A DNA stretch of 32,000 nt from Sulfolobus acidocaldarius DSM 639 (GCF_000012285.1 NC_007181.1:2130001-2162000), one strand, 5' to 3'; counted from the stretch's first letter, positions 1 through 19,228 are shown. The notes: generated by a model from the letters alone, not told the origin. Numbers and translations: made by a program.

Positions 1-240
1 AATAGGTTGGAAGGTATACTTGAGGTCAGCGTAAATGTCCTCAACCATCTCACTTAAATCAGCTCCTACACAAAATCCCCTACCTTCTCCAGTCAGAATC
101 ACTGACTTAACAGTAGGATCAGCGTTTAATTTTCTTAATATCGATATCATATCATTCCTTGTTTTTAGGTTAAGTGCATTCAATTTTTCAGGTCTATCGA
201 ACTTTACTATTGCATAACCATCTTTGTTCTCAACTATCAT
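1..240 (-). CDS. Enoyl-CoA hydratase/isomerase family protein, N-terminal part (gene continues past the left window edge)
   Basis: The reverse-strand ATG at 240..238 overlaps the TGA (239..237) of the upstream gene as ATGA. Eighty codons stay open to position 1. The translation MIVENKDGYAIVKFDRPEKLNALN...VILTGEGRGFCVGADLSEM is a typical crotonase-fold N-terminus. It is missing from the ORF track because the window truncates it. Confidence 0.75.
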   Translation of the reverse strand, partial: MIVENKDGYAIVKFDRPEKLNALNLKTRNDMISILRKLNADPTVKSVILTGEGRGFCVGADLSEMVEDIYADLKYTFQPI

Positions 241-1004
241 TCTTCCCACCTGGGTTTTCTCTTTTCTAGGAACGCCTTCATACCCTCTTTAGCTTCTTCG
301 CTAGCTAGAGCTACATAAAAGTTTCTCCTCTCTATGTCTAAACCCTGTTGAAGATTAGTCTCTAATGCTCTATTTACAGCTTCCTTTGCTAAAATTAAGG
401 AGAATAAGGGCTTTGAGGCTATTTCATTAGCTAATCTAATAGCCTCATCTATCAGTGAACCGTCTGGAACAACCTTAACCACTAATCCCATATCTTTAGC
501 CTCCTTGGCAGAAATGAGTTCACCAGTTAGTACCATCTTCATTGCGTTATACTTTCCTACTGTTCTAGTCAATCTCTGTGTACCACCTGCACCAGGGATT
601 ATACCCAGGTTAATTTCAGGCTGACCAAATTTAGCTGATTCAGATGCAATGATTATATCACAAGCCATAGCAAGTTCGAGTCCTCCACCTGCTGCCACAC
701 CATTAACAGCAGCTATTACAGGTTTCTTAAAAGCCCTCATTTTCTCCCATAAAGGCATATGACCTTTAAGTACAATTTCTTTTAAAGGAGTGTCGACCAT
801 TTCTTTTACATCTGCACCAGCTGAAAAAGCTTTACCTTCTCCTGTAATTATCACAACTTTTACTGGAGACTTCTCCAGTTCGTCAAGAGCGTTAACTAGA
901 TCATCCACCATTTTAAAGTTTATTGCATTGAGCCTGTCAGGTCTATTTAATTTTATGATACCAATCTTTTTATCCTTCGTCTCGAGCTTTATTGTCTCGT
1001 ACAT
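237..1004 (-). CDS. Enoyl-CoA hydratase (crotonase family)
   Basis: Crotonase signatures are present: LNRPDRLNA, ITGEGKAFSAGADVKEM and AAVNGVAAGGGLELAMACD. The ORF-track start at 1007 is a TTG; the adjacent ATG at 1004..1002 (MYETIKL...) is the more likely start. Confidence 0.9.
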   Translation of the reverse strand: MYETIKLETKDKKIGIIKLNRPDRLNAINFKMVDDLVNALDELEKSPVKVVIITGEGKAFSAGADVKEMVDTPLKEIVLKGHMPLWEKMRAFKKPVIAAVNGVAAGGGLELAMACDIIIASESAKFGQPEINLGIIPGAGGTQRLTRTVGKYNAMKMVLTGELISAKEAKDMGLVVKVVPDGSLIDEAIRLANEIASKPLFSLILAKEAVNRALETNLQQGLDIERRNFYVALASEEAKEGMKAFLEKRKPRWEE

Positions 1005-1046
1005 CAATATTTAAGCTACCTACAAAAATAAAAATTCATAACAAAA

Positions 1047-2276
1047 TTATGATGATAATTTCCTTATGTCAAAGGATTCGTCCTTCAGCTTATCTACCTT
1101 ACTCTTTATGTCTACCTTATCTTGAATTAACTTATTTATAGCCTCTAATTCACTCATATCTCTGTTGAATGCAACATAACCTATAACTAACCCTCCTTTA
1201 ACATAAATTACATTCAAGGATTTCTTGTCAAAATTACCCCTCATAACATAGTCATCATACCCAGTTGTCTCCCCACCAGACTCTATATGGAGGTCAAATA
1301 TATCGGACCAAACTGTAGACAAAAAGTTATAACTCTCATTTTGACCCATCATATTTCTCGCAGCTAATTGACCAGTATAATATGCGTTATTCCAGTGTTC
1401 TATCCTCCTCCTTTTTCCTGAGACTGGATCAAGAATATTAGCTACATCTCCAGCAACATAAATGTCTTCCTTAGCTTTTAGATGTTCGTCTACTAATATT
1501 CCGTTGTTAACTTGTAATTCGTTAGCTATCTCGACATTAGGGCTTATACCTACAGCCACGAGAACCATGCTACTCTCAATTTTCTTTCCACCAGACGTTA
1601 TTACACTATTAACCCTTTGGCTTCCTTCGAACTCCTTAACACCTTCGTTCAGAAGGAAAGTCACACCCTTATTCTCAAAGTACTTCCGTACCATTTCAGA
1701 AACTTTTTCATCCACAAACGTACTCCATATGAAAGGCTTTACCTCTATTACCACAGGCTCAAAACCTAGGCTCCTGAGACTAGCGGCTACCTCAACACCT
1801 ATGAAGCCTGCCCCAACAATTACTGGCTTTTTACCGTGTTTCAAATCCTCCTTAATTGAATCTGCATCACTTAAAGTTCTAAGATAATGAACTCCATTAA
1901 GATTCTCGCCATGGATACCAAGTTTCCTAGGCTTTCCCCCTGTTGTTATGAGCAATTTATCAAAGTTCAGTGTTTGTCCTGTGGAGAGTGTTAAAAACTT
2001 CTCCTTCACATTTAACCTTTCGACCGTAGTGTTAAGCATTACTTTCAGGTTATCCCGTTGATAAAATTCAGGCTTTTCAAAGAATAAACTGTCCCTATCC
2101 CTTTCACTCCTCATATACTCCTTAGATAATGGAGGTCTATCATAAGGTAAAGAACTATCACTAGTAACTAGTGTAATATTTGCCTTAGGGTCTATGTTTA
2201 ACATCTCTTTTAGTGCGTGATAACCAGCTATTCCACTTCCTATAATAACATACTTAGAGGTAAGTTTTGATGACAC
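1047..2276 (-). CDS. FAD-dependent pyridine nucleotide-disulfide oxidoreductase, ferredoxin/rubredoxin-reductase-like
   Basis: There are two Rossmann motifs (VIIGSGIAG near the N-terminus, VIVGAGFIGVEVA mid-protein) plus YVAGDVA and a reductase-type C-terminal domain. The ORF-track start (2318) is a TTG that adds 14 aa before the Rossmann fold. The GTG at 2276..2274 gives MSSKLTSKYVIIGSG and has an ATTATATAC TATA-like box about 25 nt upstream. Confidence 0.85.
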   Translation of the reverse strand: MSSKLTSKYVIIGSGIAGYHALKEMLNIDPKANITLVTSDSSLPYDRPPLSKEYMRSERDRDSLFFEKPEFYQRDNLKVMLNTTVERLNVKEKFLTLSTGQTLNFDKLLITTGGKPRKLGIHGENLNGVHYLRTLSDADSIKEDLKHGKKPVIVGAGFIGVEVAASLRSLGFEPVVIEVKPFIWSTFVDEKVSEMVRKYFENKGVTFLLNEGVKEFEGSQRVNSVITSGGKKIESSMVLVAVGISPNVEIANELQVNNGILVDEHLKAKEDIYVAGDVANILDPVSGKRRRIEHWNNAYYTGQLAARNMMGQNESYNFLSTVWSDIFDLHIESGGETTGYDDYVMRGNFDKKSLNVIYVKGGLVIGYVAFNRDMSELEAINKLIQDKVDIKSKVDKLKDESFDIRKLSS

Positions 2277-2356
2277 ATCTAATATATCAATAACGTAGTA
2301 TATAATCTCGTATTTCAAATAAGAGTTTATTAATTATCAAACGCTAGTTTAAAAAT

Positions 2357-3517
2357 ATGAGAAAGGTCGCAGTTATAGGTGTAGGACACTCTAAGTTTGG
2401 AAAGAGAGATGACGTAAGTATCCAGGAATTAGCTTGGGAGTCAATAAAGGAGGCCTTTGAAGATGCTGGAGTAACCCAGAAGGATGTTAATACTGTGATA
2501 TTAGGTAGTACTGCATACAGAGGTGTTGAACTTTATCCAGGACCTATTGTAGCTGAGTACTCAGGTTTAACAGGAAAAGTACCCATGAGAGTAGAGGCTA
2601 TGTGTGCTACAGGTCTCGCAGCTGCTCTAACAGCCTACTCCCTTGTAGCATCTGGTCTAGCTGAAATAGCTATGGCTGTGGGCGTGGATAAAATGACTGA
2701 GGTCGATACTTCAACCTCTTTAGCAGTGGGAGGAAGGGGAGGAAACTACCAGTGGGAATATCACTTTTACGGTACTACATTTCCTACTTATTATGCTCTT
2801 TACGCTACTAGACACATGGCAGTCTTCGGTACAACAGAAGAACAAATGGCTCTAGTATCGGTTAAGGCACACAAATATGGAGCAAGTAATCCTAAGGCTC
2901 ACTTCCAAAAACCTGTCACAGTTGAGGAAGTGTTAAAGTCTAGGGTTATTTCATGGCCTATTAAGCTCCTTGATGCATGTCCAATTAGTGATGGTTCCGC
3001 AACAGCAATATTTGCCTCGGAAGAGAAGGTGAGAGAGCTAAAGATAGATTCACCAGTGTGGATTAGTGGAGTAGGATTTGCTAATGACTACGCATATGTT
3101 GCGAGAAGAGGAGAGTGGTTAGGATTTAAGGCTACAACATTAGCTGCTCAGGACGCTTATAAAATGGCTGATATTACGCCTAATAGTATAGAAGTTGCTA
3201 CAGTTCATGATGCGTTTACCATAGCAGAAATAATGGGGTATGAAGACCTAGGATTTGTAGAGAAAGGTAAAGGAGGAAAGTTCATAGAGGAGGGACAAAG
3301 CGAAAAAGGAGGAAAAGTCGGTGTGAACTTATTTGGAGGCTTAAAGTCTAAAGGGCATCCTTTGGGTGCTACTGGCTTATCAATGATTTACGAGATAACT
3401 AAACAGCTTAGAGAAGAGGCAGGGAGTTTACAGCAACCACTTAAAAGATACACTGGACTGGTTCATAATGTGGGAGGAACAGGTCACTATGCATATGTTA
3501 TGGTTCTTAGAAGATGA
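2357..3517 (+). CDS. Thiolase-like acetyl-CoA C-acyltransferase (SCP-x / archaeal type)
   Basis: The nucleophile region VEAMCATGLAA and the C-terminal motifs GHPLGATG and HNVGGTG are present. Length is 386 aa with an ATG start. Confidence 0.9.
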   Translation: MRKVAVIGVGHSKFGKRDDVSIQELAWESIKEAFEDAGVTQKDVNTVILGSTAYRGVELYPGPIVAEYSGLTGKVPMRVEAMCATGLAAALTAYSLVASGLAEIAMAVGVDKMTEVDTSTSLAVGGRGGNYQWEYHFYGTTFPTYYALYATRHMAVFGTTEEQMALVSVKAHKYGASNPKAHFQKPVTVEEVLKSRVISWPIKLLDACPISDGSATAIFASEEKVRELKIDSPVWISGVGFANDYAYVARRGEWLGFKATTLAAQDAYKMADITPNSIEVATVHDAFTIAEIMGYEDLGFVEKGKGGKFIEEGQSEKGGKVGVNLFGGLKSKGHPLGATGLSMIYEITKQLREEAGSLQQPLKRYTGLVHNVGGTGHYAYVMVLRR

Positions 3518-3543: not shown

Positions 3544-3954
3544 TTAAACCTTATTTTCTCCCTTATTGCTCTGTTCTCTTTTTACAGAATCTAAGTGATA
3601 AGCCAGAGCTGTGACATGAGCAATTATTTTCCCATCCTCGTTCTTAACCACTATTCTATATAGCGAAGTCGTTCTACCCTTACTCTCTTCAAAACCTTCA
3701 GCAATTATTTTCTCACCTAGAGTTGCTTGTCTTCTAAAATCTATGTCCATATGAAGGGCTACAGAATTCCTCGAAAAGTTGCTTATGTATTCAAAAGCGG
3801 TATCGGCAAGAGCAAATATAAAAGAACCATGAACACCCCCGTGTATGTTGAGGTTTTCTTCCCTGACTTCAGCAGATACTTTAACATAACCTTCTCTTAT
3901 TTCCTCTAATTTTAAATGTAGATATTTTGCAAAATTGCTTTCTCTGAGGTTCAC
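3544..3954 (-). CDS. Hotdog-fold acyl-CoA thioesterase, PaaI/PaaD-like
   Basis: It contains NIHGGVHGSFIFALADTA, matching the PaaI-type N-x-x-G-x-x-HGG...aD motif. The protein is 136 aa. It has a GTG start 9 nt downstream of the stop of the PaaK-like gene. Confidence 0.8.
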   Translation of the reverse strand: MNLRESNFAKYLHLKLEEIREGYVKVSAEVREENLNIHGGVHGSFIFALADTAFEYISNFSRNSVALHMDIDFRRQATLGEKIIAEGFEESKGRTTSLYRIVVKNEDGKIIAHVTALAYHLDSVKREQSNKGENKV

Positions 3955-3963
3955 AGTAAATCC

Positions 3964-5250
3964 CTATTCCATAATAATTACCCTCTTACTCTTACCCTCA
4001 AATCTGGGCAAAGATCCTACCTTTATGAATTCTATTTCCGGTGTCACGAAAGCAACTGTCCTTATTTCCTCCACTATTTTATGCTTCAACTCGTTAGAAG
4101 GGTTCTCGACCTCTAATTTCAGTATCATTTTATGTTCATTACCTCTCCTGTCAAAAACCACTTGATATTCGGCAATCTCTGAATACTTCATTAAAACTAA
4201 GTTTATAGCAGAAGGGTATATCTTCACTCCTTTGTAAAATATAACATCGTCAATCCTGCCCTTTATTATACTTATTTTAGGGTAAGGAATATCATCATCG
4301 CTTTCAGTAATCTTAGTAATGTCCCTTGTTCTATACCTAATCAGGGGCACAGCTTCTTTAGAAAGAGTTGTTATAACTAATTCTCCTTCTTCTCCCTCAT
4401 CTAAAACTTCTCCAGTCTCTGGATCGACTATCTCAGCGATAAAATGATCTGTCCATATGTGCATCCCTTTATGATCGTCATAAGGACACTCCTGGGAAAC
4501 ACCTGGTCCCATAGCCTCTGTAAAACCATATATTTCTCTTGCACCCTCCTTTAGCGCTAACTCACTTTCTATCCTCTTTAGCATCTCCGAGGTCATTGCC
4601 TCTGCCCCCGGAATGGCAAGCCTCAAATTCAAGGTAGTTGGGTCAATGCCCAGTTTTTTGATGGTCTCAGCTACTACCAATTCATATGATGGTGTTCCGG
4701 TTATCACAGTAGCTTTAAAATCCTTTATAGCCTTGACCATTCCTTCGGTTCTCCCTGCACTCCACGGAATCACCTTTACTCCTATTTTCTCAGCCCCCTG
4801 TTGAAGACCAATCCCTCCTGTAAATAAACCGTAACCGTAAATATTCATCATTATATCATTCTTGTTTACGTTAGCAGTTTTGAGACACCTCGCTACCAGG
4901 TTAGACCAGACCTCGATATCATTAGTTGTATAAGCGTTTACAGTCGGTATACCTGTAGTTCCAGAGGTCATATGAAACCTTACAACCTTTTCAAACGGCA
5001 CAGCTAGAAATTCTCCGCCATATGGGTATGCCTTATCTCTAAGCTCTTCTTTTGTAGTAAAAGGGAGTTTTCTTAAATCTTCCACCGTTTTTATATCTTC
5101 AGGAGAAATTCTTCTCTGTTGAAAAAGCTTCCTGTAATACGGAGAATTCTCATATACGTAGTTTATAAGCCTTCTCAATCTCTTTTGTTGGATCTCCTTT
5201 ATGTCGTTCTTAGATAGTAGTCTAGGATTAGTTTCATCATATCCACTCAC
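3964..5250 (-). CDS. paaK: Phenylacetate-CoA ligase family adenylating enzyme (PaaK / coenzyme F390 synthetase-like)
   Basis: The short (428 aa) adenylate-forming architecture is typical of PaaK. It has the MTSGTTGIPT P-loop, YGFTE and a C-terminal ACT-like tail. Its GTG start overlaps the TGA of the upstream DUF35 gene (GTGA). Confidence 0.8.
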   Translation of the reverse strand: MSGYDETNPRLLSKNDIKEIQQKRLRRLINYVYENSPYYRKLFQQRRISPEDIKTVEDLRKLPFTTKEELRDKAYPYGGEFLAVPFEKVVRFHMTSGTTGIPTVNAYTTNDIEVWSNLVARCLKTANVNKNDIMMNIYGYGLFTGGIGLQQGAEKIGVKVIPWSAGRTEGMVKAIKDFKATVITGTPSYELVVAETIKKLGIDPTTLNLRLAIPGAEAMTSEMLKRIESELALKEGAREIYGFTEAMGPGVSQECPYDDHKGMHIWTDHFIAEIVDPETGEVLDEGEEGELVITTLSKEAVPLIRYRTRDITKITESDDDIPYPKISIIKGRIDDVIFYKGVKIYPSAINLVLMKYSEIAEYQVVFDRRGNEHKMILKLEVENPSNELKHKIVEEIRTVAFVTPEIEFIKVGSLPRFEGKSKRVIIME

Positions 5251-5630
5251 TCTACCACCTCAGCGATTATCCTCTGACCATCTGTAGATATCTTAACTTT
5301 ACTTCCTACTCTTGGTCTTCCCTTAATCCAAGCCATCACACTTACTTCTCCCAGTCTAACTATTCCAATCACGTAATCTGGATACTTCTCGAATCCTTGA
5401 GGTTTCTGAGACACAATACTATAAGTCATTAGCTCCCCTTCGCCCTGTAATTCAACCCATTCCATTTTATCTGAACCGCAATTTGAACAGTCCTTTTGAG
5501 GTGGGAAATATACAGAGTTACAGGCGACGCACCTTGTAGCTACTACCTTACCCTCCTTTAGTTTCTCTAGGAATTGGTCTGGATAGTTTATTTTATAGTT
5601 GTAGGTTATCGGTAGCCCGTCTACTTTCAA
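5247..5630 (-). CDS. DUF35 family protein (rubredoxin-like Zn ribbon plus OB fold), thiolase-associated scaffold type
   Basis: It carries the CVACNSVYFPPQKDCSNCGS (CxxC-x11-CxxC) zinc ribbon followed by an OB-fold-like C-terminus. At 127 aa the size is typical of the family. Confidence 0.85.
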   Translation of the reverse strand: MKVDGLPITYNYKINYPDQFLEKLKEGKVVATRCVACNSVYFPPQKDCSNCGSDKMEWVELQGEGELMTYSIVSQKPQGFEKYPDYVIGIVRLGEVSVMAWIKGRPRVGSKVKISTDGQRIIAEVVE

Positions 5631-5643
5631 AACCGTTACACCC

Positions 5644-6672
5644 TTAGAACACTGGAATGAAGTCGTCCTCGCTTATATCCTTTACTTCCTCTCCACTTAT
5701 ACCAAGTTCAGGCATATCAGGTAATTTTATCCCATATCTCTTCAAGGAAGCGCCTACTCTAAGCACAGCATCCTTCCATGCCTCCTCCTTTTCCTTCTCT
5801 GTGGGAATATAGAAGCCTGCATCTCTAGCTAGATCTTCCATTCTCTGATGGACTTCCAGGAACCAAGGAGGTAATTTCCAAAATTCCTTAGGGGGTTTGT
5901 AAGTGATTAGTGATAGGAACACAAAGCCAGCCCTAATTTGCTTCGTGACCAGTTTTTTCCTATCTTCGTTCATATTAGGGGCATTCTGGGTCATAATCAA
6001 ATGGGTAAAGGCATAGTGACGTGTCTCGTCAACAGCTGTATTCTTAAAAATCTTTGAAAATTCTTCATTCTTAGCATTCTTTCCCATGCTAGTGAACACT
6101 GTTGTGGCTGCTGCTTCTCCCATCATAAATGACGTGAATAATACATCAAGAGCGTATTTCTTGTAAGCGTCTAAGTAAGCTTTCCAATATCTTGATCCGT
6201 TCCACCAAACCCACTGAACATTTAACATTGCCTTCTTCTCGAGATCATCTTGAGGTTTGAAATTCAATGGGAAACCCTCCATTGCATTCTTTATAGCTAG
6301 TCCGCAAACTAAGTTATGCCTATTTTCGTCCCAGGTTATAGTTGTAAGTATTCCTCTGACTGCAGTATCCAAATGGTGCTCAAATGACTTTACTACTGCA
6401 TAAGCGAATACAGGGGTTGCATGATCGAAGTTTGATAAAAGACCATACCAATAGGCTATAGCCAGTCTCTGTTTCCTGTCTAATCCAGACATCCACTCCT
6501 TTACTCTCCTCCAATCAATGTTATCTTCGTCCCACTGCTCTTTTTTAGCCCTTCTATATAGTTGCCATGCTCTCTCGTTATCGAAATCCCATATTGGTGG
6601 ATATATATTATATTCAGGGTAAGTGGGTGACTCTTCAAAATTTATTGATTCATACTTATTCTCCTTACTCAT
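5644..6672 (-). CDS. Ferritin-like, R2-fold dimetal-carboxylate protein (putative oxygenase/oxidase)
   Basis: Two ExxH motifs (WDENRH, E116/H119; VDETRH, E216/H219) combine with candidate ligands D83 and E186. The spacings are 33/70/30, close to the RNR-R2/R2lox ligand spacing. The N-terminus has an R2-like WDEDNIDW...LDRKQR segment. It lies first in an operon with the DUF35, PaaK-like and PaaI-like genes. Confidence 0.7.
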   Translation of the reverse strand: MSKENKYESINFEESPTYPEYNIYPPIWDFDNERAWQLYRRAKKEQWDEDNIDWRRVKEWMSGLDRKQRLAIAYWYGLLSNFDHATPVFAYAVVKSFEHHLDTAVRGILTTITWDENRHNLVCGLAIKNAMEGFPLNFKPQDDLEKKAMLNVQWVWWNGSRYWKAYLDAYKKYALDVLFTSFMMGEAAATTVFTSMGKNAKNEEFSKIFKNTAVDETRHYAFTHLIMTQNAPNMNEDRKKLVTKQIRAGFVFLSLITYKPPKEFWKLPPWFLEVHQRMEDLARDAGFYIPTEKEKEEAWKDAVLRVGASLKRYGIKLPDMPELGISGEEVKDISEDDFIPVF

Positions 6673-6784
6673 AAAATTCTCACAATTTTTTATTCACCAT
6701 AATAATATTTAAAGTCATAATCAAACAAGTTAAATAAATAGGTATTATAAAAAGTAGCTAAATTAAAAATATTCATCAGGCAAT

Positions 6785-7633
6785 TTATATAACTTTAACA
6801 GGATTAACTAGGGAACCTATTCTCTCTACGTGAACTTCCATAGTAGTACTTTTAGCCTCAAGTTTGTATTCAGATGTATCTTCAGCGCCAGAATACCCTA
6901 CGGTTCCAGTTGTTATAACACTTAATTGGGGTATTGTGAGTATGGTGGAGAGCTCCCTTATAATCTCCTCGGGAGAAAATATGAACTCATCAGTTGTACT
7001 GTCTTGAATTACCTTATTATCATAAATGCTCATCATCCTAAGTCTGTCCAACTTAACCTCATCTGGAGTAGTTATAATAGAACCTAAAACTGCGAACGTA
7101 TCCCTATTCTTATTCCTAAAATGAGCACCCCTCACAATCATTCGTTTCACTACTCCATCATTAGGATCCCTCCTCCTCGCATAATACCAATCCTTACTAG
7201 CCTCACCCGGAGCCGTAACGTCATTAAATACAGTGTAACCTAGGATGTAATCTTGTATTTTTCCAGAATTTATGTTCCTCAATTTTTCCTTAATAATTAT
7301 ACCTATTTCCACCTCAGGTCTAATACCACTCTTAGGGGCATAGACTATATCTCCGTTTCCAACTACGATAGAGGGGAGCTTAATGAAAAATTTAGGAGTT
7401 CCCAGCATCTCTTTTCCTTCCTGTTTACTCGAGGCACCCAGCATTTTATAAGAGTTGACCAAGACACAGAAAATTGAAGCAGTTTGGACAGGAAGAATCT
7501 TTACAGATCGAATATCATAACTTCCACCTTTAGGCTCTTTATTAACACTCTCCATTTCGATAATATCATTTCCTATAACTTCTCCCAATCTTACCTTTCC
7601 CTGATACTCAAAGAAAACTAATTTCATTTTCAT
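6785..7633 (-). CDS. Fumarylacetoacetate hydrolase (FAH) family enzyme (HpaG/HpcE-like hydratase/decarboxylase/isomerase)
   Basis: FAH-family motifs are present: RPEVEIGIIIKE (metal-binding E-x-E) and GYTVFNDVTA. Its ATG overlaps the TAA of the upstream hpaB-like gene (TAATG). Confidence 0.85.
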   Translation of the reverse strand: MKMKLVFFEYQGKVRLGEVIGNDIIEMESVNKEPKGGSYDIRSVKILPVQTASIFCVLVNSYKMLGASSKQEGKEMLGTPKFFIKLPSIVVGNGDIVYAPKSGIRPEVEIGIIIKEKLRNINSGKIQDYILGYTVFNDVTAPGEASKDWYYARRRDPNDGVVKRMIVRGAHFRNKNRDTFAVLGSIITTPDEVKLDRLRMMSIYDNKVIQDSTTDEFIFSPEEIIRELSTILTIPQLSVITTGTVGYSGAEDTSEYKLEAKSTTMEVHVERIGSLVNPVKVI

Positions 7634-9105
7634 TACGCCTTAGGATTAGGCATCTGATCCATGATATCCCTTACCAATTTCACATATTCTCTTTTCCTAT
7701 CCTTAAACACTTCAGTGTACATTTGAGCCCATCTTATTGTGGGATCTCCTCTACTAAACCTATCATATTGTTCGTATCTCATACCACTCTCAGAGCCTAT
7801 AACATCCCACAATAGATTGAATAGTTTTACTCTTTCAAGAGCTGGTAGACCCTTTGATGCAAGGTATTTCTCAAGCATCGCCCTTTCCTCAGGGTTCTCA
7901 AAATCCCTTATACCTGCGGGTATGGGTATAGATGAACCAGCTGAAATGAGCCTAAGGATTTCGTCAACTCTAGGTAAAGCCCTCATGTTGAAATGACTAG
8001 CTGTGATGGAGATATAAGGATTGGGTCTATATATGTTTGGTAAGTATTCTCCATTTTCCTCAGCTGCTATTAATGCTGCCTCATTCAAAGTGAGGTAAAT
8101 CAGTATTTCTCCCAATTTTTCTTGGACATTAATGAAGTTATTGATACCAACTGATTCTGCAATAGCCATGGCTAACCCAGCGTAAAACTTCAATCTCGAG
8201 TAGTGTTGAATGGCAAAATGCCAATTAAACCATGTCCTTAGCTGAACAGTATGCCACATAAATCCTTCAATTTCTTCAGGCTTCTTGTAAAATATTATTC
8301 TATCCCATGGAATTAGAACATTATCTAAAACTAATATTGCATCAGATTCTTCAAATCGTGACGATATTGGATACTCGAATTCGCCTAGATTCTCCCTCGG
8401 ATAGAAGCCTCTTCTTGTTATGAATTTTACACCCTTTGAATTTCCTGGTATAGAGAAGAATATCGCATATCTGGGATCACTATCTCTCCTTATGTTAGGC
8501 AAATACCACAACATCTCAGCATAAGGTCCCGCAGTACATATCATTGCTGCACCTCTAACTATAACTCCCTCATTAGTTTCCTTGACAACACCTATCTGAA
8601 TATATGGATCCTCCCACTGAGATGGTGGTCTTGATCTGTCGTACATAGGGGCTACAATAGCGTGAGTATAGAATAGGTCTTTCTTAGTGGCTTCTTTATA
8701 AATATTTATCACATTCTCCATTATTTTACTTCCAAATACTTTACCAAAGTAATCCTCTGCATGTGCATAAAATACCATACTCCATATATTGAGATAGTCT
8801 GGACTCCTTCCGAAAAAGCCATAATAGTTGTCATAAATCCTGTTTAAACCTACCCTCATTTTCTTTAGGTCTTCTTTTGACCTGGGTCTGAAGAATGATA
8901 TACTTGTGTCTTCACCGACATCCCTGTTGTAGACTCTTAAAGCTTCGTCTTCCCAATGTAGATCATAGTATTTGGCTACTGTCTTAATAGGTATTTTAAA
9001 TGCGTGATGGTTTACTATATCTTCAACTTTTTCGCCATTATAGTAAACTTCTCCGTGATTTCCTTCCTTCAAACTTTTAATATATTCTTCTCCCCTTCTA
9101 ATCAT
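7633..9105 (-). CDS. hpaB: 4-hydroxyphenylacetate 3-monooxygenase oxygenase component family (HpaB-like, two-component flavin monooxygenase)
   Basis: The N-terminus [13 protein letters not shown]...[15 protein letters not shown], the GRSPDYLN motif and the ~490 aa length match my recollection of HpaB. The protein has only one Cys, which excludes a 4-hydroxybutyryl-CoA dehydratase Fe-S site. The ATG at 9105 overlaps the TGA of the upstream dioxygenase (ATGA); the ORF-track start at 9114 is a GTG. Confidence 0.85.
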
Positions 9106-10052
9106 GTATTCCACCCCCTTAAATTACCCGTAAAGGGATCCTCTACGGGAATCCATTCATTTAACCAAGACTCGGGTATAGGTCTTGACCAGTAATCACT
9201 CCTATATCTAAATTGTTCATAAGTCCAAACTACTGGTTTCCACTTATCTGGGTCTAGGACTACATAATCACCCGTGAAGAACTCTAGTCTTCCACCATTC
9301 GGATCTCTCAGGTAAATGTATACTCCTTGGGTAACACCATGCCTTCCAGGACCTCTCTCTATATAGTCCCATAGCTCTGCTGAAGCCATTATATCTGCAG
9401 CTCTTATAACGTCCCTTAAATCGTGGACGTAATATGTAAAATGATGAAAACCGGGTGTTTTTCTTGATGATTTGGATATAGCTAGATTATGAGAGTCACC
9501 AGACTTAGTTAGCCAGGAGACCATCTTCTTTCCTTCCTTATCTAGAAAAATTTCAGTTTCATAAAACCCTAAACTCTGGTAGAATTTTATTTCGTTCTCA
9601 AAAACATTGGAATCCACCATGAGATTTACGTGAGCTAATCTTATGGGTGAAACTCCCTTATGTATATGAAACTTCATTCTAATGTCATCAACGTACTCCA
9701 TATTCTCATAGAATACTGTAGGCATTCCACCAGTGTCAGAAAAGATTATTGCGTTATCCACTCCTTTTTCCTCGAATTTTCTCGTCTTAAGCCCACTAGC
9801 CTCAAGCTTTTCCCTCATCTTATCCACGTTTCTGACCCTAAAGGCTATATAGGATAACCCAGGTGACTCTGCCCTCTTGAGTACCAAACTATGATGCTGT
9901 CCTTCCTCGTATCCCCTCAGATACACATAATCACCATTCTTTTCTGTTTCATGAAAACCCAGTAGATCCCTGTAAAAGAAAAGAGACTTGTCCATATCTA
10001 TTACTCTGACACAAACATGCGATAGGCGGAGTACTTCGCTCATAATATACAT
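9102..10052 (-). CDS. Extradiol ring-cleavage dioxygenase (type I, two VOC/glyoxalase domains; catechol or homoprotocatechuate 2,3-dioxygenase-like)
   Basis: The architecture is a duplicated VOC domain. [14 protein letters not shown] starts domain 1 and [10 protein letters not shown] starts domain 2. Candidate 2-His-1-carboxylate ligands are HVNL, GFHHFTY and RLEFFTG. An alternative ATG start lies at 10043. Confidence 0.85.
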
Positions 10053-10131: not shown

Positions 10132-10764
10132 CTAGGTTAAATGAGTCAAGTAAAACTCAACTAATTTCTTTTCAGCTGACCTCAGGTGGTATAAAAACGT
10201 CACCTTACTTATGTTTAGCTTTTCTGCAAGTATATCGGCATTGGCTTCCCTAGGGTAATCTAAATATCCGTACTCGAAGGCAGCTTTCAATACTCTTACT
10301 TGTGATGGGGATAGATACGGGAAGAACATGTCATCTACTTGATCCACTTTTACCTCAATTAGCTCTCCATAACTCTTAAGTTGATCCACTATCTCATTAA
10401 CTGCAGTACTTGTAGTTATGAAGTCCCATAGCTCTTTCTCTTCCTTAAGCTCGTTTCTCAGGAATAGAGTCTCATAATCGTAAAGTAGACCTGCTATAGA
10501 ATTCCTATAAGTGTTAAGGAAATCTACATAGATATCAGAATCAAATTGGTTAACTTGCAATACCCTTAGTATTCCTTTATCCTTTGCTCTTTTCATTTTA
10601 CTTAACTCATTTTTCTTTGAGGAGGGGAAAATAACTCTAGCCCTCAAGTACCCCTTCTCAGGATAAACATGATAATTAATAGTATAACCACTGAGGTCAA
10701 CAGATGAAGTCCAACACTTATCATGGGCTATCAAAACTTTAACTCTGTTTAAATGCTTCTTCAT
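10132..10764 (-). CDS. Transcriptional regulator with a C-terminal HTH_10 (bacterio-opsin-activator-type) domain
   Basis: The C-terminus LSPSQVRVLKAAFEYGYLDYPREANADILAEKLNISKVTFLYHLRSAEKKL matches the HTH_10 consensus (LT-x-rQ-x-vL-x-A-x-x-GYfd-x-PR...). I do not recognise the N-terminal ~150 aa. Confidence 0.7.
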   Translation of the reverse strand: MKKHLNRVKVLIAHDKCWTSSVDLSGYTINYHVYPEKGYLRARVIFPSSKKNELSKMKRAKDKGILRVLQVNQFDSDIYVDFLNTYRNSIAGLLYDYETLFLRNELKEEKELWDFITTSTAVNEIVDQLKSYGELIEVKVDQVDDMFFPYLSPSQVRVLKAAFEYGYLDYPREANADILAEKLNISKVTFLYHLRSAEKKLVEFYLTHLT

Positions 10765-10871: not shown

Positions 10872-11753
10872 TCAAAAGTCTTCATGTAAAGGCTCTTTCT
10901 TCCTTACAAAAGTCCCATTCCTCAGATCATTTAAAGCTTCTAAAATTTGTTCTTCACTATTCATAACAATAGGTCCATACCAGTACACAGGCTCATTTAA
11001 AGGTCTACCTGAGATTAATATGAATCTACCATTTCCCGAGAGATCGACCTCGTCTCCCTCTCTATCGAAAATGATTAAGTTTCCAGAGTCAATATAGGGA
11101 GTGTTTACGGTCTTTATCTTCCCATCAACCACATAAACTAACACTGTATAGCCGTTCTTTACAGGTATTTTAACTTCCCCGTCCAATAACACGTCTAAAT
11201 ATGTTGGGTCAACTGGACTTTTAACCCTGACAGGACCATCAATGCCCATAAACTTACCTGATAATATCTGAACCTCTCCAAAGTCAAACCTCTCTTTCGG
11301 TAACTGTTTAACATCTCTGTATACGGGATCTGACATCTTCATATTAGATGGCAAATTCACCCATAACTGTAGACCATACATGTCCTCAGGTTTTTGATTA
11401 TACCTAGCTATTTCCGTACCCTCTAATGGTCTGGGCATTTCCTGATGGAAAATTCCACTTCCCGCTGTCATCCACTGAGACTGCCCAGGATAAATCACAC
11501 CTTTATTCCCCTCACTGTCCTGATGTTCTACCTTTCCTTTATAAAGCAAAGTTACAGTCTCTATACCTCTATGAGGATGCCATGGAAATCCTGCAAGATA
11601 ATCTGAAGGATTAGATGATCCGAAGAAGTCTAGCAACAGAAATGGATCTGTATACTCAACTGTATGCATACCCCCAAATACTCTGTATAACTTTACCCCG
11701 GCACCGTCCATTGTGGACTTTCCTTTTATTAATCCTGAGACTCCTCTTTTCAT
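10872..11753 (-). CDS. Pirin family bicupin protein
   Basis: The GFPWHPHRGIETVTLLYKGKVEHQDSEGN metal-binding signature (H-x-H...H...E) is present, and the 293 aa length suits a bicupin. Confidence 0.9.
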   Translation of the reverse strand: MKRGVSGLIKGKSTMDGAGVKLYRVFGGMHTVEYTDPFLLLDFFGSSNPSDYLAGFPWHPHRGIETVTLLYKGKVEHQDSEGNKGVIYPGQSQWMTAGSGIFHQEMPRPLEGTEIARYNQKPEDMYGLQLWVNLPSNMKMSDPVYRDVKQLPKERFDFGEVQILSGKFMGIDGPVRVKSPVDPTYLDVLLDGEVKIPVKNGYTVLVYVVDGKIKTVNTPYIDSGNLIIFDREGDEVDLSGNGRFILISGRPLNEPVYWYGPIVMNSEEQILEALNDLRNGTFVRKKEPLHEDF

Positions 11754-11911
11754 AATAAATACTTTAACCTTCGTAGAATATAAACTAGATTCAACTTAAT
11801 TATGATTATTTAATGAAGAGAAATCAAGCCATGTTTTTGTTAAAGAGAAAGTACTATAACGACCACACAAAGTAAGGAGCTATCCAGAAGTTATATACAA
11901 ACTAAAGTATA

Positions 11912-11974
11912 GTATGAAGGTTTTTCTGGCTTCCTCTCCCGCCATAAATGGTGAGGCTTTCCTCATTTTGTAAA
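11912..11974. repeat. Copy 1 of a ~60-nt conserved intergenic element (tandem mini-hairpins and/or a 19-codon micro-ORF)
   Basis: GTATGAAGGTTTTTCTGGCTTCCTCTCCCGCCATAAATGGTGAGGCTTTCCTCATTTTGTAAA aligns with 21202..21258. Hairpins lie at 11941..11952 (GCCA-TAAA-TGGT) and 11953..11964 (GAGG-CTTT-CCTC). Confidence 0.6.
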
Positions 11975-12032
11975 TAAAATATAATTTATTTTATATATGT
12001 ATTACTTTAAATCTAACCCTCTCTAATATAAT

Positions 12033-13856
12033 ATGATGAGCTGGGTTCCAGGCAAAGAGTGGATTGAAAAAAGCAATGTTTATCAATACATGATTTCCAG
12101 GAATATTCCCGATTTAGAGAAATTCCTTGAGTTCACATACAATGAGGCTTTTTGGGATGATTTTGTAAAAAACGTATTGAGTTTAAAATTTGAAAAACCC
12201 TATACGAAAACATTAGACCTAAGCAAAGGTAAACAATGGGCTAAATGGTTTGTAGACGGGAAAATTAATATCGCGGATCAGCTAGAGGAAAGTTCAAAAC
12301 CCTTGGTAAGGTGGATGAACGAAAGAGGTGAAAGTAAGACATTAACGTACAATCAAGTATTATATGAATCAAAGGCTGTTTCCTCATGGCTCAAAAGAAG
12401 ATATAAAAAGGGAGATAGAATTGGCATATATTTACCAATGATACCTGAAATAATTCCCATTTTCTTAGGGATTATCAGGGCAGGAATGATCGTAGTCCCA
12501 CTTTTCTCAGGTTTTGGAAAGGAACCAATAAGAGTAAGACTTGAAGACAGTGAAATGAAAGCTATATTCACTACAGATCTAACCACAAGAAAAGATAAAG
12601 AAATAAATCCGACTGAAAACCTAGAGGACTTTCAAGTAGATAAAATAGTAGTAGAAAGGGGAGGTAAGGCAAAGGTAAACTACATTTCGTATGATGAAGT
12701 TAAAAAGACAGCTGGTGATGGCTTAGAGAAGACCGAATCTGAGGATCCTCTAATGATAATTTACACTAGTGGTACGACTGGAAAACCTAAAGGCTGTGTT
12801 CACGTACATATGGGATTTCCAATAAAGGCTGCAGCTGATATCTATTTCCAGTTCGATATGAAGAATGGTGAATTACTTACATGGATCACTGACCTAGGGT
12901 GGATGATGGGACCATGGTTAATATTTGGTGGAATACTCTTACGTGGTCAAATAGGTCTATATGAAGGCTATCCAGGATTTGACCAAATTTCACATTTCAC
13001 TGAAGATTTTAAACCCGGTATTTTAGGACTTTCAGCTAGCCTTGTTAGATCATTTAAAGGAAGGGAAGGAAAGCTTCAAGTTAGACTTGCAGGAAATACT
13101 GGAGAGCCTATAGATCCAGAGAGCTGGAATTACCTGTATAGACTTATCGACCATAACCCAATAATCAACTACTCAGGAGGAACAGAAATTTCAGGTGGAA
13201 TATTGGGAAACTACGTGATAAAGGAAATCAAAGCGTCGTCGTTTAATGGTCCTTCTCCAGGTACAAAAGCTGATGTTTTCGATGAGTCTGGGAAAAGAGC
13301 ATCGCCAAATACTGAGGGGGAGTTAGTGGTTCTGTCTGTTTGGCCAGGGATGACGAGAGGATTCTGGAGAGATGAGAAGAGATATTTAGAGACATATTGG
13401 AGCAGATGGGACAATGTTTGGGTTCATGGTGACTTGGCTTACTACGACAGCCATGGATATTTTTACATTGTAGGTAGAAGCGATGATACAATAAAAGTTT
13501 CGGGAAAAAGAGTGGGTCCTGCTGAAATAGAGTCTGTGATCAATGCCCACCAGAAGGTGTTAGAATCAGCCTGTGTTGGGATCCCTGATCCATTGAAAGG
13601 AGAGAAAATAATCTGCTTTACGGTAACTAAGGAAGAGATTAATGAGAACGAGTTAATCAACTTCGCTCAGGATAAACTAGGAAAAGCCTTTTCTCCAGAC
13701 CGAATATTTCTTGTTAAGGAACTGCCTAAGACTAGAAATGCAAAGATTATGAGAAGGCTACTGAGGGCTATAATTCTCGATAAGCCACTAGGAGATATAT
13801 CGTCATTAGAAAACCCAAGTGCAGTTGAGGAAATCAGGAAAGTAGTTAAAGGCTAA
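12033..13856 (+). CDS. AMP-forming acyl-CoA synthetase (acetyl-/propionyl-CoA synthetase-like)
   Basis: It has the YTSGTTGKPKG AMP-binding motif, GDLAYYDSHGYFYIVGRSDDTIKVSGKRVGPAEIE and a C-terminal PKTRNAKIMRR. A TTTAAAT box lies about 24 nt upstream of the ATG. Confidence 0.9.
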   Translation: MMSWVPGKEWIEKSNVYQYMISRNIPDLEKFLEFTYNEAFWDDFVKNVLSLKFEKPYTKTLDLSKGKQWAKWFVDGKINIADQLEESSKPLVRWMNERGESKTLTYNQVLYESKAVSSWLKRRYKKGDRIGIYLPMIPEIIPIFLGIIRAGMIVVPLFSGFGKEPIRVRLEDSEMKAIFTTDLTTRKDKEINPTENLEDFQVDKIVVERGGKAKVNYISYDEVKKTAGDGLEKTESEDPLMIIYTSGTTGKPKGCVHVHMGFPIKAAADIYFQFDMKNGELLTWITDLGWMMGPWLIFGGILLRGQIGLYEGYPGFDQISHFTEDFKPGILGLSASLVRSFKGREGKLQVRLAGNTGEPIDPESWNYLYRLIDHNPIINYSGGTEISGGILGNYVIKEIKASSFNGPSPGTKADVFDESGKRASPNTEGELVVLSVWPGMTRGFWRDEKRYLETYWSRWDNVWVHGDLAYYDSHGYFYIVGRSDDTIKVSGKRVGPAEIESVINAHQKVLESACVGIPDPLKGEKIICFTVTKEEINENELINFAQDKLGKAFSPDRIFLVKELPKTRNAKIMRRLLRAIILDKPLGDISSLENPSAVEEIRKVVKG

Positions 13857-14202: not shown

Positions 14203-15855
14203 GTGAGACTTTTAGAACCCTTCAAAATAGCAGATGTTGAGCTAAAGAACAGGGTAGTAATGTCACCAATGATAACAAATTTCGGTACACCTGAGGGATA
14301 TCCAACAGAGACTCACATAAGATACTTTGTCAGGAGATCTTCACTTGGACTACTGATAACTGAGTACACATACGTGAATAAAACAGACGCTAGAGGTTCA
14401 CCCAATGAATTAGGACTATATACAGACGAATTTATTCCGAAATTCGCAAGACTGACAGAGGCAGTTCACAATCATGATACTAAGATATTTGTACAATTAG
14501 TCCACGTGGGAAGAAAGACTAGGAAAGCCTTAATATGGGGTAATAGTCCAGTTGCACCTTCCAACATACCATTAATTGATCCCGTAAGGGAAATGACAAA
14601 AGACGACATAAACAGAGTTATAGATGACTTCGTAAAGGCTGCAGAGAGAGCTGAAAAGAGCGGTTTCGATGGGATAGAACTACACGGAGCCCATGGATAT
14701 CTAATTGCACAATTCCTCTCTCCGGCTACAAATAAAAGGGAAGATGAATACAGGGATGGAGTGAAATTTCTGGAGGAGATAATTAAGGAAGTTAAAAGAG
14801 TTGTTTCGATACCTGTAGGATTGAGAATTTCAGCAACTGAGTTCGATCCTCAAGGATTAAATCCTGAGACTGTTGGAAAGATCGCCAAGAGAGTTGAGAA
14901 TTTATTAGATTATCTTCACTTGTCTGCGGGAAGGGACGGACCGTTAGGGGGCTCATCTTCATTTTATTATAAGGAGCCAAGCTATCTTGAAGAGGCTAAA
15001 GTAATCAGAAATCAGTTCGGAAAAACACTATTGGTTGCCGGTTCAATCCTGACAGTTGATGATGCAGAAAAAGTACTAGAGTTCGCAGATGCAGCAGTGT
15101 TAGCTAGACAAATTCTTGCTGATCCAGATTGGCTAATAAAGGTAAAGGATGGTGGAAACATAAGACCTTGTATAAGATGTAACCAGCTATGCAGGCTAAT
15201 GGCTACGAGAGAAGTGAGATGCGACGTAAACCCTGAACTCGGTTGGGAACCTGTGGAGTTGAGAAAAGGGGAAGGAGAAGTGAACATAGTGGGTGGAGGA
15301 GTTACAGGACTAGAGATGGCGAGAGTTTTAGCGAAAAGAGGTTTTGAGGTTAAACTATATGAAAAAGATAGCAAATTAGGTGGGCAACTCAACGAATATA
15401 AAGATCCTTTCAAGAAAGCCTCCTTCATAAAGCTATTAGAATACTATGAGAAAGAACTAAAGAGGTTAGGAGTAAAAGTTTATCTCAACTCTTACATTAA
15501 ATCCATTGATGGTCATACGATATTTGCGGTACCCTCTCAAAGGCAACCTATATATCAAGAGTATAAGGGAGAAGTAATATTAGTGGACTCCAATTTGTAC
15601 GCCTATCAAGACTACATATTTGAGTGGGCAAAGCAAAACGAGGTCTATATTACAAGGAATTTATTCAAGGGGCTCGATAGAAATCGTGGTTATTTATTGG
15701 AAGAGAAATACAAAGAAATAGGAGTGAGGGAATGGGATAACAGAACTAAGCCAACAGTTCACATCCATGATGTAAGAAATAGTCAACAGTCCATAGGTCA
15801 ATCCATATCTAAAGCATTCTGGTATGCTGTGGAATACGATAACAGTAGAAAGTAA
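14203..15855 (+). CDS. Old Yellow Enzyme-family NADH:flavin oxidoreductase with Fe-S motif and one C-terminal dinucleotide-binding domain (2,4-dienoyl-CoA reductase-like)
   Basis: The N-terminal TIM-barrel shows OYE motifs ([19 protein letters not shown]). A cysteine cluster [25 protein letters not shown] follows, then [34 protein letters not shown] (FAD/NAD Rossmann). It starts with GTG. Confidence 0.85.
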
Positions 15856-19100: not shown

Positions 19101-19228
19101 TAGGTATAGAAAATTACGGTGTGGACCCAGATATAGAGGTAGATAATTATCCGCAGGACTATAGGACAGGAAAGGACAGGCAATTAGATAAAGCAATAGA
19201 GATTGCGCTTAAACAAATGAATACCTAA
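16190..19228 (+). CDS. tri: Tricorn protease (S41-family core with N-terminal beta-propellers and a PDZ domain)
   Basis: It appears collinear along its length with my recollection of the Thermoplasma tricorn sequence. Shared segments are PDI..D...F, LPFWKGYRGGTKGELWI, EMQGETKTSHSYE (catalytic His region), GYVHVPDM, IVDVRFNRGGF, NENAGSDGDIFS (catalytic Ser) and TWGGVIGI. An alternative ATG start lies at 16205. Confidence 0.93.
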   Translation: MKGYYMYPDIRNDFVAFTTDDDVWLMSLKDMRPIRVTTDTGVSIKPKISPDGKRIAFTTLWLRSGKQGADVFIVEDGRSKRVTYFNRPTTWVAGWLSDKEIMVITDYHTPFNAWTEAYKVNVNDESYEPLPYGIVSNISIKNETIVIARGYQDLPFWKGYRGGTKGELWISFDAGETFKKFLSLNGIISHPMILNDRVYFLSDHESVSNLYSVDMQGENLLKHTNFSDYYCRNASSDGKRIVFQRAGDIYLFDPQTNNTIKLEIEVFTERKKKRPKFVSTMEYLTDVDVNQNYIGLIVRGKPFIMRPWEGPVVQLGEKQGVKYRELQFLSNEDIAVVDSNENKLLILSKDGKIKQKVEKDFGRIEKIKASPDGKKLLISNNRLELWLYDLESKKEKLIDKSSYGIIREFDWHPTGEWFSYAFPEGFRTQSIKIANVSGNIIRVTSPYAFDFSPSFDPDGKFLYFLSARTLDPSSDKFIFNMSFQRVIKPYLVVLSKAYSPFNQPLEEVKHDKNVDPEGIQYRVIPFPVEEDNYVKISGAKSNKVLLYSQPIRGQLNPQEDTLGKIEIFDIEIKSKEVFAENVRNFVITKDGSKVLLVFKDSIRLVNATTKPDLSTQGIKGGVVDTTRIKVLVDPEKEWRQMLFETWKLMKENYWSAEKLQGWDSVLDKYEKLLDRVSTRYELSDVLKEMQGETKTSHSYETPYDFETAEPLVIGGLGAEFNYDEQRECFKIVKIYSGDPTNEGERSPLKDPGVELNEGDCIYSIDGEKVRKGSINSHFINKDQAILEVLTSDGKNRTVSVRLMKDEKYLMYRHWVEKNREYVHKMSDGKLGYVHVPDMMYQGFAEFFRLFISEFYRQGLIVDVRFNRGGFISGLILQRLLLRREGYDVPRNGERIPFPYLSSPKVIVAVTNENAGSDGDIFSYLFKKYKIGILIGRRTWGGVIGISPRHLLVDKTVVTQPEFAAIFDEVGLGIENYGVDPDIEVDNYPQDYRTGKDRQLDKAIEIALKQMNT

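Follow-up and report, generated by a model that had tools for sequence, protein, structure and literature searches.

We analyzed a 32,000-nucleotide window of the genome of Sulfolobus acidocaldarius DSM 639 (NC_007181.1:2130001-2162000), in which four consecutive open reading frames (ORFs) on the minus strand encode a ferritin-like diiron protein, a DUF35 protein, a PaaK-type ligase, and a PaaI-type thioesterase. Positions below are those of the whole window. The features of this unit are as follows, and each product was an exact match to the accession given.

5644-6672, minus strand: 342-aa ferritin-like (R2/R2lox-fold) dimetal carboxylate protein (AAY81578; hereafter the diiron protein), proposed aryl-acetyl-CoA oxygenase, from its metal ligands, AlphaFold (AF2) model, and Foldseek matches
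5247-5630, minus strand: DUF35 protein (AAY81577; Zn ribbon and OB fold), probable thiolase scaffold partner, from zf-ChsH2, OB_ChsH2_C, and 6esq_E
3964-5250, minus strand: PaaK-family aryl-acetate-CoA ligase (AAY81576), from TIGR02155, 4r1l, and 2y27
3544-3954, minus strand: PaaI-family hot-dog thioesterase (AAY81575), from TIGR02286, TIGR00369, and 1j1y
6673-6784, minus strand: AT-rich spacer with TATA-like boxes, probable promoter of the unit, from reading of the sequence

The stop codon of the diiron gene was separated by 13 nt from the TTG start of the DUF35 gene, the DUF35 stop overlapped the GTG start of the ligase gene in GTGA (-4 nt), and 9 nt lay between the ligase stop and the GTG start of the thioesterase gene. 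An earlier note on this DNA had listed the same genes and junctions, which our reading of the sequence bore out, as a Pfam scan did its domain assignments. The internal starts were preceded at 8-13 nt by GGTG-type Shine-Dalgarno-like motifs. Terminator-like sites within the unit were on the opposite strand only, and their count was not above that in shuffled sequence. Because of the tight junctions and the internal Shine-Dalgarno-like motifs, we infer that the four genes, which share one strand with very short or overlapping junctions and contain no internal terminator, form one transcription unit and are co-transcribed. The 112-nt AT-rich spacer between the diiron gene and the upstream FAH gene contains TATA-like boxes, TTTAAATA at 6712-6705 and TTTTTATAATA at about 6752-6742, and is probably the unit's own promoter. 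A sigma-70 promoter scan was not applicable to the spacer, as the host is an archaeon.

Alignment of 28 homologues indicated that E116/H119, E186, and E216/H219 of the diiron protein are invariant in the family and that position 83 is always D or E. Judging from its 33-residue spacing to E116, the acidic residue at position 83 is probably the first metal ligand, and the metal-site pattern reads D/E...ExxH...E...ExxH. Cys123, four residues beyond H119 (codon at about 6304-6306), was also invariant; its position presumably corresponds to the radical Tyr (Y122) of Escherichia coli ribonucleotide reductase (RNR) R2 and to Cys151 of the methane monooxygenase hydroxylase (MMOH). Further conserved stretches were NG(S/A/G)RYW, SF(M/L)MGE, and the C-terminal tail ...PELGISGEEV...D.IPVF (window 5644-5680, alignment columns about 345-377). 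The AF2 model was all-helical with a pLDDT of 87.9, and the tail was disordered (pLDDT <50). This tail recalls the R1-binding tail of RNR R2, and it is conserved although the reductases adjoining diiron genes differ in type. In Foldseek, the model matched PDB chains of R2lox and of RNR R2 best (E about 5e-4, TM 0.5-0.65), and toluene monooxygenase hydroxylases ranked lower. The metal ligands, the helical model, and these structural matches place the protein in the ferritin-like dimetal-carboxylate superfamily.

Sequence searches with the diiron protein gave a marginal Rubrerythrin match (25 bits) and a weak FA_desaturase_2 match below the cut-off (E 9e-4) in Pfam, no match in an NCBIfam scan, and no match at E up to 1 by single-sequence phmmer against the PDB, where the S. 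acidocaldarius R2lox (SaR2lox) structures are present. A profile of the family yielded 22 PDB matches at E up to 10. When 1.84 billion cluster representatives were searched, 380 matched with E <=0.001 and 67 with E <=1e-30, and fragments were numerous among them; because the matches are so few, we regard the family, as defined by sequence, as compact and distinct. Its members are named 'aminobenzoate oxygenase', 'ferritin family protein', or 'hypothetical protein' in databases. One member (P0034, 394 aa, on a 17.5-kb assembly contig) consists of the first ~130 residues of a thiolase and the C-terminal two-thirds of a diiron homologue; we rejected it as a true thiolase-diiron fusion, since it is probably an assembly or gene-calling artefact.

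When compared with PaaA, BoxB, R2lox, and AurF, the families named in the earlier note, the diiron protein could be placed in none and stood as a separate family. Two diiron systems, the phenylacetyl-CoA 1,2-epoxidase PaaABCDE and the benzoyl-CoA 2,3-epoxidase BoxAB, are known for degrading aromatic rings aerobically in the form of CoA esters, and a diiron aryl-CoA oxygenase in an aerobic CoA-dependent aromatic pathway is an already known kind of system. PaaA, the catalytic subunit of PaaABCDE, is also a ferritin-like diiron oxygenase encoded in paa clusters, and the same function is proposed here for the diiron protein; PaaABC(D)E requires an NAD(P)H-linked Fe-S flavoprotein and works alongside enzymes of the PaaK, PaaI, PaaG, PaaF, PaaH, and PaaJ types. 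In contrast, the diiron protein has no PaaB/C/D partners, its fold is nearer, among the 50 best PDB matches, to R2/R2lox than to PaaA, and the reductase paired with it in bacteria has the reverse domain order of PaaE. No PF05138 or NCBIfam PaaA match was found at E up to 0.01, and hhalign of the family profile with Vitreoscilla PaaA and PaaC gave probabilities of 0.4% and 0.6%. In agreement with the earlier note, which had seen no PaaB/C/D/E-like genes, tblastn with Vitreoscilla PaaA-E detected no homologue of these four, nor of PaaA, in the 32-kb window, and likewise none in 22 Paa-like loci. PaaA/PaaC membership was rejected on the missing family match and partner genes. Neither PaaA nor BoxB chains were among the 50 best Foldseek matches; BoxB was also absent from the 22 PDB profile matches, no direct BoxB sequence comparison having been made. 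BoxAB, which acts on an aryl-CoA ester, resembles the proteobacterial diiron loci in its architecture of one diiron oxygenase and one reductase, but the ligase at the S. acidocaldarius locus is PaaK-type and not a benzoate-CoA ligase. BoxB is ~470 aa long, and its partner BoxA, an Fe-S/FAD protein, is of a different type.

R2lox, including the S. acidocaldarius structures 6qrz and 7qbk, was the best fold match and has the six-residue carboxylate/His site layout in common with the diiron protein. However, identity was about 14%, profile E values were 0.0018 (6qrz) and 0.75 (7qbk), S. acidocaldarius has its own R2lox proteins, and the context of the diiron gene is paa-type. Identity with R2lox was rejected, as the SaR2lox structures matched at E 0.0018 or worse. 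Identity with RNR R2 was rejected on a PF00268 score of 21.2 bits (cut-off 33.6) and the invariant Cys at the radical-Tyr position, and identity with AurF on a PF11583 score of 17.0 bits (cut-off 29.6) and a profile E of 0.04 against AurF in the PDB. AurF, likewise a ferritin-like diiron oxygenase and of comparable length, gave rise to the 'aminobenzoate oxygenase' name. It has a third His ligand, whereas the diiron protein has no His four residues before E216, and no amine or nitro-compound context was seen around the diiron gene. Finally, the diiron-paired reductase matches MmoC and BenC models and has the same Fer2-FAD-NAD order as in the MmoX/TmoA systems, and MMOH also has Cys at the R2 radical-Tyr position. 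Unlike those systems, the diiron oxygenase is a single 340-aa chain without conserved adjoining beta, gamma, or effector genes, and its substrate would be a CoA ester.

We then mapped the neighbourhoods of the family. At least 564 encoding loci were found in species-representative genomes, 80 of which were sampled; together with others, these made up 89 loci, which we mapped with flanks of about 10 kb by tblastn, using Paa, Hpa, and window proteins as references. At least one paa-type gene was present within about 10 kb of the diiron gene in 50 loci, at least two in 36, and at least three in 27. PaaA was near the diiron gene in five loci, as a separate gene set. Three or more paa-type genes with no PaaA in the flanks were observed in 22 loci, including 15 with at least 9 kb covered on both sides. 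A reductase abutted the diiron gene on the same strand in 20 of the 89 loci; its domain order is Fer2, FAD_binding_6, NAD_binding_1, opposite to that of the PaaE encoded at the same Vitreoscilla locus, and the reductase scored against BenC and MmoC models. One such oxygenase-reductase pair is WP_162590270 and WP_162590038 of Variovorax RA8. PaaX, a repressor responsive to phenylacetyl-CoA, was encoded next to the diiron gene or in its vicinity in 16 of the 84 loci that were mapped first.

In a distance tree, the paa association appeared in separate clades: Pyrobaculum, Sulfolobales, Nitrososphaerales, Proteobacteria, Eremiobacterota, and Acidimicrobiia. With ECH for enoyl-CoA hydratase and HCDH for 3-hydroxyacyl-CoA dehydrogenase, the gene order was thiolase-DUF35-HCDH-thioesterase-ECH-ECH-diiron-CoxS-CoxM-FAH-HpaD-HpaB-ADC in Pyrobaculum and HCDH-ECH-ECH-x-diiron-thiolase-amidohydrolase in Nitrososphaerales. 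The diiron gene was accompanied by the reductase, often also by PaaX, in Proteobacteria; it stood as diiron-PaaN-PaaI or PaaZ / diiron-PaaK-PaaI in Eremiobacterota; and PaaK, crotonases, and PaaX were near it in Acidimicrobiia, with HCDH and thiolase in one of the two loci. A Variovorax plasmid carried, on one strand, genes for TetR, MaoC (PaaZ-C-terminal-like), a crotonase whose best matches were oxepin_alt and PaaG, DUF35, thiolase, a PaaK-family ligase, the diiron protein, the reductase, and an ABC transporter. The archaeal loci and this plasmid share the ligase, two crotonases, the thiolase with DUF35, and usually a dehydrogenase, and PaaABCDE was not found in their flanks; by gene content, we consider the plasmid a bacterial twin of the archaeal module. 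The earlier note had proposed a stand-alone diiron enzyme in the place of PaaABCDE. The link to paa genes in at least six lineages, the enzyme's own NADH:2Fe-2S reductase and often PaaX beside it in Proteobacteria, and the Paa-like clusters with no PaaABCDE in their flanks in archaea and on the Variovorax plasmid spoke for this idea; a simple substitution, on the other hand, did not hold, since several bacteria carry both PaaABCDE and the diiron-reductase pair.

Several loci showed further features. In Pyrobaculum oguniense (L002), genes for CoxS-like (2Fe-2S) and CoxM-like (FAD) proteins directly follow the diiron gene (11121-12411), and a CoxL-like molybdopterin subunit is encoded 6 kb beyond them (17164-19236); these Cox-like proteins could donate electrons or, as an aldehyde oxidoreductase, replace the PaaZ dehydrogenase. 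In Azospirillum (L039, L050, L051, L059, L060, L069), the diiron gene stands with those for PaaX and the reductase in a separate trio, with genes for an HgmA_N-like dioxygenase and a fumarylacetoacetase-type FAH protein three to four genes off on the other strand. In Dormibacterota (L019, L023-L027, L032, L035), a DtxR-family repressor gene (Fe_dep_repress and FeoA) is divergent from the diiron gene in seven loci, about 1 kb upstream, and an MpaB/Lcp-type oxygenase gene follows the diiron gene in six; these loci are without nearby paa genes, which hints at metal-dependent regulation or a different role. A Thermoproteales metagenome-assembled genome (MAG; L016) contains two tandem matches to the diiron protein, and Metallosphaera javensis has two copies on different contigs (L005, L006), one in a Paa-like context. 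ORFs of 62-71 aa with no Pfam match stand beside the diiron gene in Nitrososphaerales and Eremiobacterota (L028 9587-9793, L020 9565-9780, L044 11050-11238).

The three partner proteins were characterized by their database matches. The ligase carries AMP-binding and AMP-binding_C_2 domains (Pfam) and matched the phenylacetate-CoA ligases 4r1l and 2y27 in the PDB over its full length (E about 1e-101); its NCBIfam scores were 433 bits for TIGR02155 (cut-off 646) and 406 for NF041878 (cut-off 700). On these matches we assign it to the PaaK family. The thioesterase has a 4HBT domain (Pfam), scored above the cut-off of TIGR00369 and at 94.1 bits for TIGR02286 (cut-off 118.9), and has the PaaI proteins 1j1y (E 2.7e-17) and 2fs2 as its closest solved relatives. 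In the DUF35 protein, zf-ChsH2 and OB_ChsH2_C were both above the Pfam cut-off, and the best PDB match was 6esq_E, deposited as 'Pfam DUF35'; we take 6esq to be the archaeal thiolase/HMG-CoA-synthase/DUF35 complex. An SCP-x-type thiolase gene was the immediate neighbour of the DUF35 gene in every other mapped locus that has one, directly beside it in L002, L003, L005, L007, L008, L014, L084, and L087; in the window, it lies 26 nt past the end of the four-gene unit on the opposite strand. Because DUF35 always adjoins this thiolase in other loci, the S. acidocaldarius protein, with its Zn ribbon, OB fold, and thiolase-adjacent gene, most likely partners the neighbouring thiolase rather than the diiron protein. 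DUF35 as an oxygenase subunit was rejected for the same reason, and the earlier note's inclusion of DUF35 in an oxygenation module was abandoned.

The earlier note had also staked its proposal on the recurrence of the gene order in related genomes. The four-gene order proved specific to S. acidocaldarius and was not kept in other Sulfolobales, which on the note's own terms formally counts as a refutation, but the gene content was conserved. In Acidianus copahuensis, M. javensis, Stygiolobus, and a Sulfolobaceae MAG, PaaK-DUF35-thiolase faces ECH-ECH-(PaaI)-diiron-(HCDH) on the other strand, and the order in A. brierleyi is HpaD-HpaB-ADC-FAH-diiron, then PaaK-DUF35-thiolase / ECH-ECH. The relatives' two crotonases were consistently one PaaF-like and one PaaG-like, the pair being typed from A. 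brierleyi, and in L005, L008, L009, and L014 the diiron gene is directly or one ORF downstream of this pair on the same strand. From these comparisons, we take the S. acidocaldarius operon to be a local rearrangement that joined oxygenase, ligase, and thioesterase in one unit.

The genes flanking the unit in the window are listed below.

2357-3517, plus strand: SCP-x-type thiolase, convergent with the four-gene unit, PaaJ-analogous step (NF009228, 793 bits, above the cut-off)
1047-2318, minus strand: HcaD-like ferredoxin-NAD(+) reductase, candidate electron donor (Pyr_redox_2 and Reductase_C)
237-1007, minus strand: PaaF-like enoyl-CoA hydratase (PRK05862 307 bits, PaaF PRK09674 283 bits, below the cut-offs)
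1-240, minus strand: second crotonase, 5' part, cut by the window start, PaaG-like in relatives (ATGA overlap with the first crotonase)
6785-10052, minus strand: HpaD-HpaB-FAH operon, homoprotocatechuate-type meta-cleavage, directly upstream of the unit (NCBIfam; overlaps of 13 nt and 1 nt)

The flavoprotein, thiolase, and two crotonases that the earlier note had seen beside the unit were thus real, the flavoprotein spanning 1047-2318. The HcaD and AndAa models scored 237-248 bits on it, below their cut-offs, and its gene leads a second minus-strand unit with the two crotonases, 39 nt from the first of them. The orthologous second crotonase of A. brierleyi and Pyrobaculum matched PRK06072 and PaaG TIGR02280. 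In the Hpa operon, HpaD (9102-10052) scored 349 bits for TIGR02295, above the cut-off of 321, HpaB (7633-9114) scored 318 bits for TIGR02309, below the cut-off, and the FAH-family gene (6785-7633) was HpaG-like. The window held no recognisable gene for HpaE, HpaH, HpaI, or a flavin reductase of the HpaC type, and the archaeal homoprotocatechuate route there looks incomplete or non-canonical. The hpa genes of relatives include an additional ADC/MppR-family gene.

From sequence, predicted structure, and gene neighbourhood, we propose that the four-gene unit belongs to a rearranged Paa-like island in which the diiron protein acts as an aryl-acetyl-CoA ring oxygenase in PaaABCDE's stead, as its family would in archaea and in some bacteria, a proposition whose chances we consider evenly balanced. 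The genes, their spacing and families, the metal-site residues, the fold, and the neighbourhood counts are shown by the data, whereas we infer which substrate is used, how it reacts, where the electrons come from, and that PaaABCDE is replaced in archaea. The PaaK-family ligase would make an aryl-acetyl-CoA, most simply phenylacetyl-CoA, and the diiron protein would attack the aromatic ring of this CoA ester with O2 and two electrons, most likely by epoxidation in the manner of PaaABCDE and BoxAB, in the simplest case 1,2-epoxidation of phenylacetyl-CoA. In S. acidocaldarius, the electrons would probably arrive via the HcaD-like flavoprotein and a ferredoxin encoded elsewhere, and in Proteobacteria they would come from the dedicated reductase of MmoC order (Fer2-FAD-NAD). 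Further conversion of the product would fall to the two crotonases (PaaG-like and PaaF-like), a 3-hydroxyacyl-CoA dehydrogenase, and the thiolase with its DUF35 partner, and CoA trapped in dead-end esters would be recovered by the PaaI-type thioesterase. We favour a ring oxygenase because the family associates with PaaK, PaaG-like, PaaN/PaaZ, PaaI, and PaaX genes, because it has an oxygenase-type reductase partner, and because the archaeal clusters hold all recognisable Paa steps except the oxygenase and PaaZ. Since an oxepin-CoA hydrolase of the crotonase type has been described (PMC9007349), a PaaZ gene is not required. In a 2026 survey of 6,536 genomes, archaeal PaaABCDE-linked ligases were found in Halobacteria only, and PaaA/PaaC were put forward as markers of the phenylacetate pathway (PMC13186573).

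Several observations weigh against this proposal. No paa-type gene was found in 39 of the 89 loci, including those of Dormibacterota, many Actinomycetes, and Marsarchaeota, the last being without any related gene context. PaaA or the full PaaABCDE set stands beside the diiron-reductase pair in Marinospirillum, Vitreoscilla, Zoogloea, and a Rhodocyclaceae MAG, and the redundancy there therefore needs explaining. In the window, aldehyde dehydrogenase, PaaZ, and HCDH genes are absent, and an HcaD-like flavoprotein gene was beside the diiron gene in no other mapped locus. Since the ligase and the thioesterase scored below NCBIfam equivalog cut-offs, their substrate may not be phenylacetate. Full-text searching, for which no locus tag or accession was confirmed, found no literature on the family or on the S. 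acidocaldarius cluster and no biochemical or genetic evidence on any family member, whose functions are thus predictions. On a wider view, the family might constitute a third type of aryl-CoA ring oxygenase, of separate evolutionary origin and made up of one R2-fold chain and a generic reductase, that replaces PaaABCDE; Sulfolobales, Thermoproteales, and Nitrososphaerales would then turn out to possess a complete phenylacetate pathway of the aerobic, CoA-dependent kind. This claim is tentative, and we would sooner expect it to fail than to hold.

The earlier note had the oxygenated CoA ester proceed to beta-oxidation, a course kept in the above mechanism; the abutting HpaD-HpaB-FAH operon, however, would allow hydroxylation, thioester hydrolysis, and meta-cleavage instead. 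The diiron protein would then be an aryl-CoA ring hydroxylase, and PaaI would free hydroxyphenylacetate for meta-cleavage by HpaB/HpaD, or for a homogentisate-type dioxygenase in Azospirillum. Such ligase-hydroxylase-thioesterase logic resembles the salicylyl-CoA 5-hydroxylase route of Streptomyces. The four-gene unit contains exactly an oxygenase, a ligase, and a thioesterase right after HpaD-HpaB-FAH on the same strand, the diiron gene is last after HpaD-HpaB-ADC-FAH in A. brierleyi and lies between the crotonases and FAH-HpaD-HpaB in Pyrobaculum, and in Vitreoscilla hpa genes occur some 6 kb downstream from the diiron-reductase pair. The HgmA_N-like dioxygenase and FAH genes close to the Azospirillum trio fit as well, and the NCBIfam name of PaaI is 'hydroxyphenylacetyl-CoA thioesterase'. 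Nevertheless, hydroxylation leaves the much commoner crotonase/HCDH/thiolase linkage unexplained, especially in Nitrososphaerales and Variovorax, which have no hpa genes or PaaI nearby, and the paa and hpa genes may merely share an island for the breakdown products of aromatic amino acids. We consider a hydroxylase unlikely, though it deserves serious attention.

The loci with a complete PaaABCDE beside the diiron gene in the same cluster would also be explained by a Paa-associated accessory oxygenase, acting on a side product or a substituted analogue, such as 2-hydroxyphenylacetyl-CoA or some other dead-end ester, or serving as an isoenzyme for another supply of O2 or metal. Co-transcription with PaaX in Rhodocyclales-type loci is in line with this idea, as PaaY, a 'repair' enzyme, is encoded in one operon with PaaX in E. 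coli, and so is the metal-dependent DtxR-family repressor of Dormibacterota. The archaeal, Variovorax, Eremiobacterota, and Acidimicrobiia clusters, however, have no PaaABCDE within about 10 kb and hence no primary oxygenase to which the diiron protein could be accessory; a purely accessory role is improbable.

An O2-dependent acyl-CoA desaturase or R2lox-like lipid oxidase replacing acyl-CoA dehydrogenase would agree with the weak FA_desaturase_2 match, with R2lox as the best structural match, and with clusters in which genes for a ligase, hydratases, a dehydrogenase, and a thiolase occur without one for an acyl-CoA dehydrogenase. We find this very doubtful, as the SaR2lox match is remote, the ligase is PaaK-type and not FadD-type, and the links to PaaX, PaaN/PaaZ, PaaI, and PaaG-like genes favour an aromatic CoA route, in which an acyl-CoA dehydrogenase is not required. 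That the operon is a rearrangement accident and the diiron protein plays a role unrelated to its three partners, for example as an AurF-like N-oxygenase or an R2-like radical generator, is hardly credible: the gene order found only in S. acidocaldarius, the 'aminobenzoate oxygenase' name, and the R2-like, disordered yet conserved tail are outweighed by the sub-threshold AurF and RNR-R2 scores in Pfam, the Cys in place of the radical Tyr, and the recurrence of the same gene set around the family in many lineages despite reshuffling.

Further from the unit, the window contains the following genes.

10132-10764, minus strand: HTH_10 regulator (Pfam, 71 bits), also present by the cluster in Pyrobaculum (L002) and the Sulfolobaceae MAG (L008)
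10872-11753, minus strand: pirin gene, near the HpaD-HpaB-FAH operon and the HTH_10 regulator
12033-13856 and 14203-15855, plus strand: acetyl-CoA-synthetase-like ligase and OYE plus Pyr_redox flavoenzyme of 2,4-dienoyl-CoA-reductase architecture

The last two genes, just past the pirin gene, may belong to the same catabolic island. A tRNA-Trp gene (anticodon CCA) was identified at 30071-30161 on the minus strand (91 nt; Rfam, 52 bits; ARAGORN); it probably contains an intron because it is longer than a standard tRNA. ORFs at 30215-31798 (minus strand, 527 aa), 29467-29967 (plus strand), 25868-26209 (minus strand), and 26305-26652 (minus strand) had no Pfam match at E up to 0.001.

Should the diiron protein prove to be an aryl-acetyl-CoA ring oxygenase, the novelty would lie in the protein family, in its architecture of a single subunit, and in its presence in Sulfolobales, Thermoproteales, and Nitrososphaerales. 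Such an enzyme would represent a new type of reaction on an R2-like protein scaffold and would explain the 'incomplete' paa clusters of several bacterial phyla, and the proteobacterial pair of oxygenase and reductase would be a simple target for assay. The phenylacetate pathway would then extend to thermoacidophilic and soil archaea, and would be present in archaeal lineages that are now scored as being without it.

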